A stretch of 64,000 nucleotides of DNA from Escherichia coli (lineage in GTDB: Bacteria; Pseudomonadota; Gammaproteobacteria; Enterobacterales; Enterobacteriaceae). The notes below the pieces were generated by a model. That model did not search any database. It was not told the origin of the DNA and worked only from the letters and a program-made list of their open reading frames with translations. How positions within the stretch are numbered: position 1 is the first letter of the stretch; each line of letters starts with the position of its first letter. Location: NCBI RefSeq assembly GCF_003334815.1, contig NZ_QOWO01000018.1; one strand, written 5' to 3'. A program made the position numbers and the translations under genes. Positions 2,268 to 15,358 of this stretch are shown here, piece by piece.

Positions 2268-3119
<852 letters not shown>

Positions 3120-3122
3120 GGT

Positions 3123-3746
3123 ATGTCAGGTCTGCCACAGGGCAGACCAACGTTTGGCGCTGCGCAAAACGTGAGCGCGGTGGTGGCGTATGACTTATCT
3201 GCCCACATGCTGGATGTCGTGGCACAAGCTGCCGAAGCCCGGCAACTGAAAAATATCACCACCCGCCAGGGATATGCCGAAAGTCTGCCATTTGCCGATA
3301 ACGCATTTGATATTGTTATCAGCCGTTATTCTGCCCATCACTGGCATGATGTTGGTGCAGCACTGCGAGAAGTGAATAGGATATTGAAACCTGGCGGTAG
3401 GCTGATTGTGATGGACGTAATGTCTCCGGGTCACCCAGTGCGCGACATCTGGTTACAGACGGTAGAAGCATTACGCGATACCTCTCACGTACGAAACTAC
3501 GCCAGCGGTGAGTGGTTGACGTTAATCAATGAAGCCAATCTGATAGTTGATAATTTAATTACAGATAAGTTACCGCTGGAATTTTCTTCATGGGTCGCGA
3601 GAATGCGTACGCCAGAAGCGTTAGTAGACGCTATTCGCATTTACCAACAGAGCGCATCGACAGAGGTGAGAACGTATTTTGCCTTGCAGAATGATGGCTT
3701 TTTCACCAGTGATATCATCATGGTAGATGCACATAAAGCGGCATAA
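3123..3746 (+). CDS. yafE: SAM-dependent methyltransferase (type 11-like)
   Basis: 207-aa ORF immediately after yafD; methyltransferase-like motifs (DIVISRYSAHHW, LKPGGRLIVMD). Confidence 0.7.
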   Translation: MSGLPQGRPTFGAAQNVSAVVAYDLSAHMLDVVAQAAEARQLKNITTRQGYAESLPFADNAFDIVISRYSAHHWHDVGAALREVNRILKPGGRLIVMDVMSPGHPVRDIWLQTVEALRDTSHVRNYASGEWLTLINEANLIVDNLITDKLPLEFSSWVARMRTPEALVDAIRIYQQSASTEVRTYFALQNDGFFTSDIIMVDAHKAA

Positions 3747-5223: not shown

Positions 5224-5982
<759 letters not shown>

Positions 5983-8234: not shown

Positions 8235-8265
8235 CCGCAAGATTTTTAATTTTGCGGTTTTTTTG
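8235..8265 (+). terminator. Rho-independent terminator after aspV
   Basis: ccgcaa-gatttttaattt-ttgcgg followed by a T7 run. Confidence 0.6.
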
Positions 8266-8531
8266 TATTTGAATTCCACCATTTCTCTGTTCAATGATTT
8301 TACTCTGGCGTAGGTGCGTGATTCTCGCTTGTTGTCTCATTCATTAAAATTCAATAATGATATCGAACCATTCAGCTTAAATATATTTCTAGAGAATAAA
8401 TTTATATTGATTAAATGAATGTATATTTCAAATTGATTTTGTTTGTTATTATTTAAGTGAGGTATATAATTAGAGTCCGTTATCAATGCTAAATATTCTA
8501 ATCATTATGACAGGCGAGGGAGTGTCCAATT

Positions 8532-9317
8532 ATGAATTCAAAAAAGCTTTGTTGCATATGTGTGTTATTCTCGCTGCTTGCAGGATGTGCCTCTGAATCT
8601 TCTATTGATGAAAAGAAGAAAAAAGCTCAAGTCACACAAAGTAATATTAATAAAAACACTCCCCAGCAACTGACAGACAAAGATTTATTCGGTAATGAAA
8701 CCACTCTGGCCGTATCCGAAGAGGATATTCAAGCTGCGCTTGATGGAGATGAGTTCCGCGTTCCCCTTAATTCTCCTGTAATACTTGTTCAATCCGGCAA
8801 CCGCGCACCGGAAACCATTATGCAGGAGGAGATGCGAAAATATTATACTGTTTCCACATTCTCTGGTATCCCGGACAGGCAAAAGCCTCTGACTTGTAAC
8901 AAAAACAAAGATAAAAATGAGAACGAGGATGTTGCCAGTGCTGAGAATATGAACTGGATGCAGGCACTGCGTTTTGTGGCTGCAAAAGGACATCAGAAAG
9001 CGATTATTGTTTACCAGGATATGTTGCAGACAGGAAAATATGACTCTGCGCTGAAATCAACAGTATGGTCCGACTATAAAAATGACAAACTCACTGACGC
9101 TATCTCCCTGCGCTACCTGGTACGTTTCACGCTGGTGGATGTGGCAACAGGTGAGTGGGCTACCTGGTCGCCGGTGAATTATGAATATAAAGTGCTTCCA
9201 CCATTGCCCGACAAGAATGAAGCCAGTACGACTGATATGACAGAGCAGCAAATCATGCAACTTAAGCAAAAGACCTATAAAGCGATGGTAAAAGATTTGG
9301 TTAACCGCTATCAATAA
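8532..9317 (+). CDS. yafT: Putative lipoprotein
   Basis: 261-aa ORF with lipoprotein signal peptide and lipobox (SLLAGC); AT-rich context downstream of aspV. Confidence 0.75.
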
Positions 9318-9453
9318 TAAATTATATCTGCCGCCAGGAATTTCTGGCGGCAATAATACAAAATTCTTTGCATAAGAAATTTTTCTTGACAAAGACAGTG
9401 CAAGAAAGGACATGGAATCCGGAGTTAAAAACTGTTTGTTTTAGAATATTTAA

Positions 9454-9933
9454 TTATTTAACTGCTGAATCTTCCTTGCGAGAAATATATCCATTATTAC
9501 ATTTCATGCCATTTTTAATATAGATTGCTCCTGGGAAAATTCCCGTATTATTACCGCAGGGGTGATAATTAGTATTGACATATCCTGTGACAAAAGGAGC
9601 TATTAAAGGTGCTATTACGATAGCTATTAGTAAAAATATAAGAGTTAGCTGTATTGTTATGTCTGTGGCGAAATTGACTACCTTCGTTTTTTTGATTAAG
9701 AATGATTTTATTATCGTAAGTAAAATTACATGAATATTTAAAAAGGAAAACGACATGAAACCGAAGCACAGAATCAACATTCTCCAATCATAAAATATTT
9801 CCGTGGAGCATTTTATTATTGAATATAGAGGTTTAACTCCGGTAAAAAACAAAGAAGCATTGAATGCAGGGAAAAATAATATGGCCATAAAAAACATCGA
9901 AAGAAACTCTTTTAATTTAACATGTAAACGCAT
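9454..9933 (-). CDS. ykfM: Small multi-pass membrane protein (candidate immunity protein)
   Basis: 159-aa very hydrophobic low-GC ORF; RBS GAGGA upstream; immediately downstream of the yafU-like gene. Confidence 0.65.
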   Translation of the reverse strand: MRLHVKLKEFLSMFFMAILFFPAFNASLFFTGVKPLYSIIKCSTEIFYDWRMLILCFGFMSFSFLNIHVILLTIIKSFLIKKTKVVNFATDITIQLTLIFLLIAIVIAPLIAPFVTGYVNTNYHPCGNNTGIFPGAIYIKNGMKCNNGYISRKEDSAVK

Positions 9934-9942
9934 GGTTAATCC

Positions 9943-10857
9943 TCATATCACGGGTGGAGTGTTAAGAACATACATAAATGGAGTCATGTTTTCCCTTTTC
10001 CATTTATCAAGTTCCTGTTGCCGTTTTAGTCCATCTCTAATTGCATATTTTAATTTTTCTGATAAATGGCATTGAGCATCGATTTCATTTAAAACAACTG
10101 TACACACTATCCCTGTCAGTAAAATTGCTCCTCCGACAAGAATTACTGGAAAGCCAAAGCTAACACAGGCAAAAGAAGCCAGACTTCCAATAGCGGTTGC
10201 AACACCACCGGCTATAACTGCTTTGGCCACATCCATTGAAAAATCGCCAAGAAAATTAACCAGATCTCGCTCTGAACTCATAATAAATTCTATGGTTCTC
10301 CAGGCTACTGAAAACCAGATACAGAACTTAACTCCTTTTATTGATTCAGATAAAGCTCCTCGCCAGCCAATAGCGAGTTCCAGAACTTGAGGCGCTCGTG
10401 AAGAGAAAATATATTTACCGAGCTTTTCTAAAAGCCAGGGGCTGGATGTTGTGATTTTTATATATTTCTCTCCAAGTATTTCAAAGTAACTTGCTTTTGT
10501 ATACTTTAAGGCATTAAGGTTAAATATAATTTTCCCATTGTCATCAAACTCAGTCATTAATTTACCCGCGTTAACTAACCAGGCGAGTGTATCTTTTATA
10601 CCTGAAGGATGTGTAGTGATAAAATGAATGTAATCAAATGATGTTATTGGGCTGAGTATTTTTTTTGCAACATCAAGTGTCAAGGGAATAACATGATGAG
10701 TGTTCTGATGCCTTAACTCATCAATGAGTGGGACGTCGTTAAGATAAGGGTGCTGAGGTACTAGCTGGTTTATCGGCTGAGCCCCCCGAAGAATGTCACC
10801 CACATAATCAGCCCACTGTGCATTCTGTGTGTTGTTGTTATTCCTTAAACCAGCCAT
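9943..10857 (-). CDS. yafU-like membrane protein with C-terminal transmembrane region (candidate Hcp-associated effector)
   Basis: ORF 9943..10872; ATG at 10857 preceded by GGAGAG RBS; C-terminal hydrophobic stretch VAKAVIAGGVATAIGSLASFACVSFGFPVILVGGAILLTGIVCTVVL; sits 43 bp downstream of hcp. Confidence 0.55.
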   Translation of the reverse strand: MAGLRNNNNTQNAQWADYVGDILRGAQPINQLVPQHPYLNDVPLIDELRHQNTHHVIPLTLDVAKKILSPITSFDYIHFITTHPSGIKDTLAWLVNAGKLMTEFDDNGKIIFNLNALKYTKASYFEILGEKYIKITTSSPWLLEKLGKYIFSSRAPQVLELAIGWRGALSESIKGVKFCIWFSVAWRTIEFIMSSERDLVNFLGDFSMDVAKAVIAGGVATAIGSLASFACVSFGFPVILVGGAILLTGIVCTVVLNEIDAQCHLSEKLKYAIRDGLKRQQELDKWKRENMTPFMYVLNTPPVI

Positions 10858-10900
10858 TTTATCTCTCCGCAATAGTAATTTATTATGTTATTACAGTAAG

Positions 10901-11383
10901 TTACTGTACACGATCCTGCCATTTACTCATTGCATTCGTACCGGCTAACGTATGCTCCCAGGAAATATCTTCATAAATAAAGGCAATTCTCTCCTGTGGT
11001 TCCAGTTCTTTTTCCAGGACAGCATGCGGTGTGACAAAATCAATACTTGATATTCGGGCTTTTGACAGATTTATTTTATAATAAGGCTGGTAAATACCCG
11101 CTTTACTGGTTCGGTAGAGTATAAATTCACATATTGCCATTTTTTCATTGTCACTAAGTGCTTTTGCCAGCAATGGTGAGGATTTATCAACCGGTTTGGT
11201 GATAATTAATTCATGATGATTGACATTTTGACTTCTTGAGATGGAATGCATTAACGCATAAACCATGATCTGATCTTTATGTTCTGGCTGCGCTTTGTTT
11301 CCGACAGAATCAAGCGTTGAGCAACCTGCTGAAATTAGCCCTTGTGTCTCTCCACTCAAAGATAAATAACTTATATTTGCCAT
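10901..11383 (-). CDS. hcp: Type VI secretion system tube protein Hcp
   Basis: 160-aa ORF with Hcp-family features (KPVDKSSPLL, C-terminal ...IYEDISWEH...); strong AGGAG RBS. Confidence 0.8.
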   Translation of the reverse strand: MANISYLSLSGETQGLISAGCSTLDSVGNKAQPEHKDQIMVYALMHSISRSQNVNHHELIITKPVDKSSPLLAKALSDNEKMAICEFILYRTSKAGIYQPYYKINLSKARISSIDFVTPHAVLEKELEPQERIAFIYEDISWEHTLAGTNAMSKWQDRVQ

Positions 11384-11406: not shown

Positions 11407-12009
11407 TTATTTTTCGGCCGTGGTACCGGTTGCCGCCTCTGGCATGACGTTATTCTTCAGCAGCAGCCAGCGGCTTAACACGCCTTCGAGTCGCTCATTA
11501 ATTTGTTTTTCCAGCGCATCTGTATTCTGCTTCTGCGCACGGGCATCATGGTACTGCGTCAACAGAGACTCAACGGGTGTTTCCTGCCCCAGTCCCCGCT
11601 CCGCCTGCCAGATGACATTTTTGATATAGGAAAGGGTTAGTCCCTCTTTCTCGCGCTGCATCACTAGATCTGCAAAAGCATGTAAGTCCTGGCGGGTCTG
11701 CAACCAGCCACGCAACTGCGGGCTACTCTGTGCGCGGGTTTTGAGTGCCTCATTCCATTGTGTCGAGGCCTGTTGCTGTTGCAGGCTTTCCGGCCAGCGA
11801 CTGTCGGCAACACGCATCATCTGCATCCCGGTTTCCAGCGGCTGTACCGGGGAGGTATCAAGAAGTTGTTGCAGCCTGCGCTCATAGTTTTCGAGTTCAG
11901 GTGAGGCCATCCACACCGTTGCTGCGCCCTGAGCGGTGTCGTTAACCTGTAACAGTTGCTGCTGCACCGGATAGACCTGCCACCACCACAATGCTGAGGC
12001 GACAGCCAC
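11407..12009 (-). pseudogene. T6SS-associated membrane-anchored protein, probable fragment (family unassigned)
   Basis: In-frame translation opens right after the tssB stop with a hydrophobic helix (GFIAGIACSVAVASALWWW) but no ATG; only a GTG at 12009; Gln-rich soluble domain; no tssC follows tssB. Confidence 0.4.
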
Positions 12010-12071
12010 TGAACAGGCGATCCCTGCGATAAACCCTCTTACCGTAACCCTGTTTAATGAAATAGTGGTGG

Positions 12072-12572
12072 TTATTTATTGCTCACCTGGCCGATTTCTT
12101 TGAGCAACTGCTCGCGGGACTCTTCATTTTCCAGCAATGCCTGGAGCTGGGTACGGAATGCCGGAAGGTTACCCATCGGCCCCTTCAGTGCAGTCAGTGC
12201 TTCACGCAGTTCCAGCAATTTATTCACTTCCGGAACCTGCCGGGCCACGCTATCTGGTGAAAAATCATCCAGTGACTTGATATTCAGCGCCACATTCAGC
12301 TCATCGTCCGTTGTGCTTCCCTTCAGCGTGGCGGGGACGGTAAAATTGAGGCCAATGGCTGCTTCAGCCATCACTGCACCGAAATTGTGCTTGTTAACGG
12401 AAACTGCCTGACGTTCATCCAGTGAGGATGTTTCCTGCGTATTTCCGGTATCGCCGACAACGAGCATGTTAAGCGGAAGTTCCACTTCAGCCGTCTGGCC
12501 ATCTGTTTTTGGGACATACGATATATTAATACGTTCGCGAGGCGCGACGCTGCCTTCAAATTTTTTGCTCAT
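12072..12572 (-). CDS. tssB: Type VI secretion system contractile sheath small subunit TssB (VipA family), orphan
   Basis: 166-aa ORF with TssB-like N-terminus (MSKKFEGSVAPRERINISYVP...ELPLNMLVVGD); not followed by a tssC gene. Confidence 0.75.
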   Translation of the reverse strand: MSKKFEGSVAPRERINISYVPKTDGQTAEVELPLNMLVVGDTGNTQETSSLDERQAVSVNKHNFGAVMAEAAIGLNFTVPATLKGSTTDDELNVALNIKSLDDFSPDSVARQVPEVNKLLELREALTALKGPMGNLPAFRTQLQALLENEESREQLLKEIGQVSNK

Positions 12573-13266
12573 AAAAGTGATCCGTCATGTTATCTCGTAC
12601 AGGCCATGAACACGGCATATTCGTACCGTAAAAAATATCGGAAATGCCGCCTTGATGGCGGTGAAAATAAAATCACCACTCCTTCATCACCCCGCATTTT
12701 ACGCTTCAAAATAAATAAGAAAAGGACTTTTTATCGATCGTAAAGAGGGGTATTCTGCAAGCGTTAAATAGATTGTATGAACCTGTGCAATTCGCGTCAG
12801 GTGTATTATGGCAATAATTTAAATATAGAATTTTTATGTATCTTATTGAATTATATAATAATTTTATTAAACATAAGCTAATCTAATGATTGCTTGTTTA
12901 TATATTTGTTTTGTGATTGATTAAGTGGGTATTTTTAAGGAATATCTCAAAAATTATCAAAATGATAATTCAGAAAGGATAAATACAATATTTATTCATG
13001 ATTCAGCTTTGGCCATTTTATGGAGGCAATACGGACTTTGAACAGTTGGGTATGGTTATCCAGATATATATTATTAAGTTATTGCTGAATAAGAGATTTA
13101 ATGATTTTAAAAATAGTTTTTACGACAACCGTAAATTCTAGCTCGGTTTGTATGTAAAAAATACTGAAAATGATGCGGTTCCGTGAAGTGAGCTGCATCT
13201 GCCTGTCTGGGATTAACGGCAGGTCATTGTAAGTAGTAATTAACCACGTTAACAAGGAGTTTACAA
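12573..13266. promoter_or_regulatory. AT-rich divergent intergenic region between tssB and the Hcp-Rhs gene
   Basis: About 700 bp of low-GC non-coding sequence flanked by divergently oriented genes; typical of xenogeneic promoter regions. Confidence 0.4.
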
Positions 13267-14610
13267 ATGCCAACACCGTGTTATATCTCCATCACTGGTC
13301 AGACCCAGGGAAATATTACTGCAGGTGCATTTACCGCTGATTCTGTCGGCAACATCTATGTGCAGGGGCACGAAGACGAGATGCTGGTGCAGGAATTCCT
13401 GCATAACGTTACTGTCCCGACCGATCCTCAGTCCGGTCAGCCTGCGGGTCAGCGTGCTCACAAGCCTTTCATTTTTACCGTGGCGCTGAACAAAGCGGTT
13501 CCGCTGATGTACAACGCACTGGCCTCCGGCGAAATGCTGCCAACCACTGAACTTCACTGGTGGCGTACCTCTGTGGAAGGCAAACAGGAGCATTATTTCA
13601 CTACCCGCCTGACTGATTCGACGATTGTCGATATGAAACTGCATATGCCGCATTGCCAGGACCCGGCGAAACGCGAGTTTACGGACTGCTCGGGGTACAC
13701 GACGCGGTATGAGTACGACTGGTACGGTCAACAAATCGCCGTTCACCGGGAGGAAGGCATCAGCACTTACAGCAGTTATAACCCGCGTGGGCAACTGGTC
13801 AGTCAGAAGGATGCGCAGGGGCGGGAGACCCGTTATGAGTACAGTACCGCAGGCGACCTCACCGCTATCATTGCCCCGGACGGTAGCCGCAGTGAGACAC
13901 AGTATGATGCGTGGGGTAAAGCCATCAGCACCACGCAGGGCGGTCTGACGCGCAGCATGGGGTATGACGCTGCCGGGCGCATCACCGTGCTGACCAACGA
14001 GAACGGCAGCCAGTCCACGTTCCGGTATGACCCGGTGGACAGGCTGACTGAACAGCGCGGCTTTGACGGGCGGACGCAACGTTACCATTATGACCTGACC
14101 GGAAAACTCACGCAGAGTGAAGACGAGGGGCTTATCACCCTCTGGCATTACGATGCGTCAGACCGTATCACCCGGCGCACGGTGAACGGTGAACCGGCGG
14201 AGCAGTGGCAGTATGACGACCACGGCTGGCTGACAGAAATCAGCCACCTGAGTGAAGGCCACCGTGTGGCGGTCCACTACGGCTATGACGATAAAGGCCG
14301 CCTGACGGGCGAACGGCAGACGGTGGAGAACCCGGAGACGGGGGAGATGCTGTGGGAGCATGAGACGGGGCATGCGTACAGCGAACAGGGGCTGGCGACC
14401 CGTCAGGAGCCGGACGGTCTGCCGCCGGTGGAGTGGCTGACGTATGGCAGCGGTTATCTTGCGGGGATGAAGCTGGGCGGAACACCGCTGGTCGAGTACA
14501 CGCGGGACAGGCTGCACCGTGAGACGGCCCGCAGCTTCGGCGGGGAGGCATATGAACTTGCCACCGCCTGGAATACCAGCGGCCAGCTCCGGAGCGATTC
14601 ATGTCATTAG
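13267..14610 (+). CDS. Hcp-Rhs fusion, N-terminal fragment (Hcp domain plus YD repeats), truncated
   Basis: N-terminal about 140 aa Hcp-like ([20 protein letters not shown]...), then YD/Rhs repeats ([54 protein letters not shown]); ORF ends abruptly at the junction with the H-repeat fragment; AAGGAG RBS. Confidence 0.75.
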
Positions 14611-14629
14611 TGCGTTCTCAACAATGCAC

Positions 14630-15358
14630 AGTCTGGTCATCGGACAGATCAGGACGGATGAGAAATCCAATGAGATTAGAGCTATCCCTGAACTTCTTAA
14701 CATGCTGGATATTAAAGGAAAAATCATCACAACTGATGCGATGGGTTGCCAGAAAGATATTGCAGAGAAGATACAAAAACAGGGAGGTGATTATTTATTC
14801 GCGGTAAAAGGAAACCAGGGGCGGCTAAATAAAGCCTTTGAGGAAAAATTTCCGCTGAAAGAATTAAATAATCCAGAGCATGACAGTTACGCAATGAGTG
14901 AAAAGAGTCACGGCAGAGAAGAAATCCGTCTTCATATTGTTTGCGATGTCCCTGATGAACTTATTGATTTCACGTTTGAATGGAAAGGGCTGAAGAAATT
15001 ATGCGTGGCAGTCTCCTTTCGGTCCATAATAGCAGAACAAAAGAAAGAGCTAGAAATGACGGTCAGATATTATATCAGTTCTGCTGATTTAACCGCAGAG
15101 AAGTTCGCCACAGCAATCCGAAACCACTGGCACGTGGAGAATAAGCTGCACAGGCGTCTGGACGTGGTAATGAATGAAGACGACTACAAAATAAGAAGAG
15201 GAAACGCAGCAGAATTATTTTCAGGGATACGGCACATTGCTATTAATATTTTGACGAATGAGAAGGTATTCAAGGCAGGGTTAAGACGTAAGATGCGAAA
15301 AGCAGCCATGGACAGAAACTACCTGGCGTCAGTCCTTGCGGGGAGCGGGCTTTCGTAG
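14630..15358 (+). pseudogene. yafF: H-repeat-associated (ISAs1-family) transposase, C-terminal fragment
   Basis: Translation ...[17 protein letters not shown]...FAVKGNQ...[10 protein letters not shown]... matches the C-terminal part of H-rpt/ISAs1 transposases; no N-terminal half. Confidence 0.7.

Follow-up and report, generated by a model that had tools for sequence, protein, structure and literature searches.

The 694-bp gap between tssB and hcp'-'rhs, two genes transcribed away from each other at positions 12573-13266 of the window (as we call the whole 64-kb stretch of E. coli DNA analysed here), is very probably the orthologue of the T6SS-2 tssB/hcp promoter studied in EHEC, with an AT-rich centre that serves as an H-NS platform silencing both promoters. 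In the arrangement we propose, the two ends of the gap, ~130-200 bp each, would carry promoter-proximal sequences and structured leaders, leftward for tssB and rightward for hcp, and the 360-bp centre, kept extremely AT-rich, would act as a platform defined by its composition. H-NS, and probably StpA too, would nucleate on this AT-rich centre and spread, such that both promoters, along with any spurious promoters that AT-rich DNA might provide, would stay off in ordinary growth. We infer the occupancy of this particular copy by H-NS, as well as the positions of its start sites. The main features of the region are as follows.

12573-13266, no strand: divergent control region, orthologue of the EHEC T6SS-2 bidirectional promoter (t6sP), based on GC content, orthology and literature
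12771-13130, no strand: AT-rich core, presumed H-NS platform, defined by composition and not by sequence
12072-12572, minus strand: tssB, T6SS sheath small subunit, intact, 166 aa (TIGR03358, 1.7e-50; the same as the RefSeq tssB of strain LZHX12)
13267-14610, plus strand: hcp'-'rhs, in-frame fusion ORF of 447 aa (Hcp, TIGR03344, residues 1-140; RHS core, residues 137-444)

The gap and its genomic setting

The original prediction, made from the letters of the window, had described about 700 bp of low-GC noncoding DNA between divergent tssB and Hcp-Rhs genes, and its coordinates proved exact. The gap has a GC content of 32.4%, compared to 52.6% for the window, and an equal or greater AT-richness is reached by 0.45% of all 694-bp windows when the full 64 kb are scanned. 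AT-richness is extreme in the middle of the gap, with 25.6% GC in the 360 bp from 12771 to 13130 and 19% GC from 12800 to 13000; the lowest GC content of any 200-bp stretch in the whole 64-kb window, 18%, is found at 12804, within the gap. In the RefSeq annotation of strain LZHX12, which possesses an identical copy, the same 694 bp are without an annotated gene.

The original prediction had counted the gap among the H-NS-silenced promoter regions typical of acquired islands. This needs qualifying, in that the flanking T6SS genes are host-like in their GC content (52-60%) and the gap alone is kept low in GC across genera. AT-richness is therefore not simply the mark of an acquired island. Elsewhere in the window, a second AT-rich patch (GC <27%) is located at 8256-8579, just upstream of yafT, and a low-GC gene block at 9300-11300 (28-43% GC) comprises ykfM, a second and intact hcp (10901-11383), and a 309-aa ORF to which NCBIfam gives no match.

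The neighbouring genes, dnaQ, tRNA-Asp (aspV), yafT and ykfM to one side and yafV, ivy and fadE beyond the other, identify the locus as the T6SS-2 in the aspV island of E. coli. The gap is present as a single copy in 2,229 of the 5,426 complete E. coli genomes (41%), at an identity of 96.5-100%. Aligned end to end with EHEC O157:H7 strain 86-24, it is 98.7% identical, with 9 differences across 694-696 bp, and for further O157:H7 genomes the identity is 98.6-98.7%. In strain 86-24, the gap divides two complete operons, tssB-small ORF-tssC-tssE-tssF-tssG-tagH and hcp-vgrG-rhs. The gap of the window has tssB and hcp diverging from it, is located in the aspV-yafV island and is orthologous to the EHEC region along its full length.

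Compared with EHEC, two homopolymers are shorter in the window: the A run at 13163-13166, by one base, and the T run at 12830. The former reads A4 in the window and in LZHX12, both of which are decayed loci, versus A5 in the nine other copies compared; the length of the latter varies by 0-2 bases among copies. In E. coli T6SS-2, tssB and tssC are separated by a conserved 74-aa hypothetical gene (WP_000123970.1; positions 5241-5465 of locus L002, and equivalents), and a 70-aa ORF occupies the tssB-tssC position in Salmonella (3034-3246 of locus L008). This small gene is absent from the more distant relatives that we fetched and is lost in the window.

As to the state of the secretion system itself, the label of a T6SS remnant in the original prediction is justified. 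The leftward structural operon opens with tssB (minus strand, start codon at 12572) and in the window is cut off right after it; tssB is joined at ~12044 to the 3' end of vasL, and tssC through tssM are gone. The 200-aa ORF downstream of tssB (11407-12071) has no match in NCBIfam, and RefSeq calls identical DNA a VasL-domain protein; this ORF appears to be a 3' vasL fragment. The same tssB-vasL junction (~11628-12044) is also found in one complete genome, that of strain 52F4 from a calf.

On the other side, comparison with LZHX12, whose gap is 100% identical, revealed a 776-bp deletion which fuses hcp codon ~138 to rhs in frame at 13679. A further 2.8 kb are missing relative to LZHX12, such that rhs runs into an ISAs1 remnant at ~14591, and next to the broken rhs end lies a truncated ISAs1-family transposase ORF (14519-15358, covering 94-314 of the 314 model positions). 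K-12 carries an H-repeat/ISAs1-type pseudogene, yafF, at this site. The hcp-rhs junction of the window was found in no complete RefSeq E. coli genome. Since strains 2014C-3011 and EC581 possess independent hcp-rhs or gap-rhs deletions, this spot looks deletion-prone. Insertions occur as well: in strain 300709, an IS1A in the AT-rich core cuts off the 160 bp nearest to hcp from the remainder of the control region, and the overlap of its flanks fits an IS1 target duplication.

13099-13107, no strand: IS1 insertion site in strain 300709, seen as a 9-bp overlap of the two flanks

Because both flanking operons are truncated, the control region now heads relics only, tssB-'vasL-hcp to the left and hcp'-'rhs to the right, with no secretion system to regulate, and its function in this genome may be nil. 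For this genome, the T6SS is dead and the gap should be annotated as a relic promoter and not as a gene.

Conservation of the core and of the gene-proximal ends

To place the gap among its relatives, we fetched loci of TssB relatives from E. albertii, Yokenella regensburgei, Citrobacter youngae, Salmonella enterica, Superficieibacter, C. farmeri, the Enterobacter cloacae complex and a second E. coli variant. All of them share the same divergent hcp/tssB layout, with gaps of 552-696 bp and 29-34% GC set in loci of 45-52% GC. When E. coli is compared with Yokenella or C. youngae, no more than 30-50% of the core is identical, approximately what chance would give for AT-rich DNA, and between lineages sequence conservation is limited to the two gene-proximal ends. 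The confinement of low GC to the gap across genera points to a composition that is maintained, and not to a common sequence ancestry. Length and GC content being kept while sequence drifts is the signature expected if the core were a platform recognized by its base composition, and the same pattern argues against a passive residue of horizontal transfer. The preservation of gap length and of 29-34% GC in at least eight lineages argues for selection on base composition itself, in the role of a silencing platform.

Within E. coli, we assessed diversity in 11 copies. The gap core (pi, 0.028) resembles tssB (pi, 0.024), and much lower values were obtained for the hcp-proximal 136 bp (pi, 0.0037) and for the first 220 nt of hcp (pi, 0.005). 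Counted as variable sites per 100, the core has 8.6 versus 15 for the third-codon positions of tssB. Taken together, hcp and its upstream 136 bp (13131-13486) are approximately six times less diverse than tssB or the core among the E. coli copies, which suggests either strong constraint or a recent spread by recombination.

The elements conserved in sequence cluster in the two ends of the gap, where we presume the promoters and leaders to be located.

12573-12770, minus strand: tssB-proximal part with conserved blocks, presumed tssB promoter and leader
12756-12750, minus strand: AGAATAC block
12732-12719, minus strand: AAAAAGTNCTTNTC block, at a fixed 17 nt upstream of TAAAAT
12701-12696, minus strand: TAAAAT block
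13131-13266, plus strand: hcp-proximal part, nearly invariant in E. coli, presumed hcp promoter and leader
13201-13224, plus strand: inverted repeat or hairpin, 43-66 nt upstream of the hcp ATG (RNAalifold, 6 lineages)
13254-13259, plus strand: Shine-Dalgarno sequence AAGGAG of hcp, 7 nt before the ATG, read from the sequence and invariant in close relatives

On the tssB side, the AGAATAC, AAAAAGTNCTTNTC and TAAAAT blocks are each conserved in Escherichia, Yokenella, C. youngae and Salmonella. In two strains as well as the second E. coli variant, the TAAAAT block reads TAGAAT, leaving the A at position 2 and the T at position 6 unchanged. The predicted fold of the tssB leader RNA yields a z-score of -1.95 against shuffles. 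Toward hcp, a GTAAGT block on the plus strand is conserved as well, and the hcp-proximal 140 nt fold with a z-score of -2.68, a value equalled by 3 of 200 shuffles.

The hairpin at 13201-13224 comprises 7 pairs in the window copy and 8 in the consensus, closing a loop of ~9-11 nt. According to RNAalifold, its pairs are kept in 6 lineages. One of these pairs has gone from CG to UA in 3 of the 6 lineages, with both sides changed and the pairing retained in every row; a second pair counted as covarying is broken in two rows, including that of the window itself. The change from CG to UA follows a single phylogenetic split, and the covariation therefore carries little weight. The element could represent either an RNA hairpin in the leader or an operator of palindromic form.

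Workers on EHEC report that an activating factor of T6SS-2 is missing, in that neither hns deletion nor the tested media fully switch the system on. It is possible, albeit in our view unlikely, that the module of AAAAAGTNCTTNTC, 17 nt and TAAAAT (12732-12696, minus strand), together with the repeat at 13201-13224, provides the sites at which a T6SS-2 activator or a leader-binding factor docks. Phylogenetic footprinting narrows the sequence-specific part of the region to two short blocks, making them cheap targets in the search for the missing activator.

Alternative readings of the gap

The original prediction also allowed for a small ORF or sRNA hidden in the gap, and this was not borne out. 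Mechanical ORFs of 18-65 aa are present on both strands, and those of 20-65 aa speak for an independent gene encoding a small protein or small RNA, as do the z-score of the hcp-proximal 140 nt and its conserved hairpin. However, when we looked for the ORFs of the gap in E. albertii, Yokenella and C. youngae, none was conserved. One-base indels, polymorphic among the E. coli copies compared, alter two of them: an indel at 13166 affects the 65-aa ORF, which is cut to 56 aa in EHEC and altered too in a Citrobacter-labelled MAG, and an indel at 12629 replaces the 45-aa ORF by a 40-aa ORF in that near-identical MAG. Searching Rfam with positions 12000-13800 at a permissive E-value returned a single chance match to IsrM (10.6 bits versus a gathering score of 376, E = 4.6); a scan for intrinsic terminators gave none inside the gap; and on both strands the core RNA folds no better than shuffles (z-scores of -0.4 to -1.9). 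The structured part abuts the ribosome-binding site of hcp and is therefore more simply explained as a leader. We thus see no gene inside the gap and consider a hidden one very improbable. A repeat search within the gap produced only short AT-rich chance pairs. A quite improbable reading, in our estimate, is that of an inert spacer whose AT-richness is the passive mark of foreign or decaying DNA. It draws on the degraded state of the surrounding system in the window, on the IS1 in the gap of another strain, and on a core that evolves about as fast as the whole of tssB. Against it stand the 52-60% GC of the flanking genes, next to which the gap alone keeps 29-34% in nine lineages from several genera, the lower number of variable sites in the core than at tssB third-codon positions, and the published promoter-swap and reporter data, which place both operons under the control of the EHEC copy.

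Finally, the gap might be chiefly the switch of a specific regulator, with H-NS in a secondary role, as in the Fur/Dam type of sci1 or the CpxR type of hcp2B. This reading gains from the conserved blocks that do not resemble promoters (AAAAAGTNCTTNTC and the 13201-13224 repeat), which could be operators, and from the EHEC system not being fully activated by hns deletion alone. We scanned the gap for motifs of H-NS, Fur, IHF, CRP, Fis, CpxR, PhoP, RcsB, SlyA, OxyR and sigma-54 as well as the RfaH ops element, using consensus strings, with composition-matched shuffles as controls; these scans are to be read as leads and not as tests. None of the regulator motifs rose above shuffles in the gap except for marginal PhoP-like matches (7 versus 2.8, P ~0.025 before correction for 13 motifs), which we discounted. 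There was no excess of sigma-70-like matches (5 versus 4.1 +/- 1.9 in shuffles), and the high-affinity H-NS motif (TCGATAAATT-like) occurred at 3 sites with 2 mismatches, compared to 2.8 in shuffles. No Fur box was found in the gap within 5 of 19 mismatches to the consensus, and its two GATC sites, at 12579 and 12736, are not conserved in relatives; on these grounds the Fur/Dam model of EAEC sci1 does not transfer to the gap. Likewise, the gap contains no CpxR box of the form GTAAA-N4-8-GTAAA and no match within 3 mismatches to the published APEC Phcp2B promoter/EMSA primers, so that the CpxR/hcp2B model of APEC does not transfer either; it follows that the APEC promoter data are not transferable by sequence. 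Neither a sigma-54 nor an ops element was found in the gap, and no tested EHEC condition activated the promoters. Given these results, we regard a specific regulator as the chief function of the gap as so improbable as to be nearly negligible, and retain the silenced two-way promoter as our preferred reading.

The EHEC promoter and related T6SS loci

Much of this reading builds on work in EHEC. Vazquez-Lopez et al. 2026 named the region an "unknown bidirectional promoter" (t6sP; PMC13141884). When t6sP was replaced by Ptac/ParaBAD in EHEC, both operons were turned on (PMC13141884). Cloned between gfp and mCherry, t6sP gave almost no signal in the wild type; its activity was higher in an hns mutant, particularly in the hcp direction (PMC13141884). 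Deletion of hns alone gave only weak protein expression in EHEC (PMC13141884); thus, H-NS is not the whole story of T6SS-2 silencing there. None of the tested conditions activated the EHEC promoters.

H-NS binding to the region and several transcription start sites within it are stated in the same paper with reference to Wan et al. 2017 and to Kim, Lee and Yoon 2022 (J Microbiol 60:928) (PMC13141884); in Kim, Lee and Yoon 2022, the region goes by the name of "divergent promoter". Wan et al. 2017 contains no H-NS binding assay. What it does report is that hns deletion raises Z0264 ~60-fold, with clpV and vgrG rising as well (PMC5363993, PMC7216683). Note that the Z0264 tag has been a source of confusion: the gene is called "hcp-2" in Wan et al. 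2017 but carries the TssB domain PF05591, and later papers treat it as tssB; the hcp beside the gap in EDL933 is Z0266 ("hcp3"). With Z0264 being tssB, and clpV and vgrG also rising, it follows that derepression in the hns mutant extends to genes on either flank of the gap. The H-NS-silenced promoter of the original prediction accordingly holds for the 98.7%-identical EHEC copy, where derepression on both sides and the reporter speak for it, whereas for the copy in the window it is a likely extension by orthology and composition.

Other T6SS loci offer partial parallels. The T6SS2 of APEC/ExPEC (B2) belongs to the same T6SS family and has a divergent hcp-vgrG unit; it is repressed by H-NS according to genetics and unresponsive to Fur or iron (PMC5874247, PMC6534853). 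In contrast to the gap analysed here, its hcp2B promoter has a different sequence and is activated by CpxR (PMC5874247, PMC6534853). In EAEC sci1 (T6SS-1), the promoter of this E. coli T6SS is likewise located upstream of tssB, but it has overlapping Fur boxes and Dam sites (PMC3145626), whereas neither a Fur box nor a conserved GATC was found in the gap. The T6SS of Salmonella SPI-6, linked to aspV and reported to be silenced by H-NS (Brunet et al. 2015), provides a general precedent for H-NS control of AT-rich T6SS promoters; by its description in the literature it belongs to a different phylogenetic group of T6SS. The Salmonella locus in our comparison (L008) is a T6SS-2 relative.

The T6SS-2 promoter of EHEC O157:H7 EDL933, between tssB (Z0264) and hcp3 (Z0266), shares chromosomal site, flanking genes and sequence with the gap of the window, the difference being that the EHEC copy heads complete operons and the window copy two truncated ones. 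For this near-identical EHEC copy, the region, its role as a two-way promoter and its dependence on H-NS are already known. To this, our analysis makes the modest additions of a composition conserved across genera without conservation of sequence and of two short conserved blocks.
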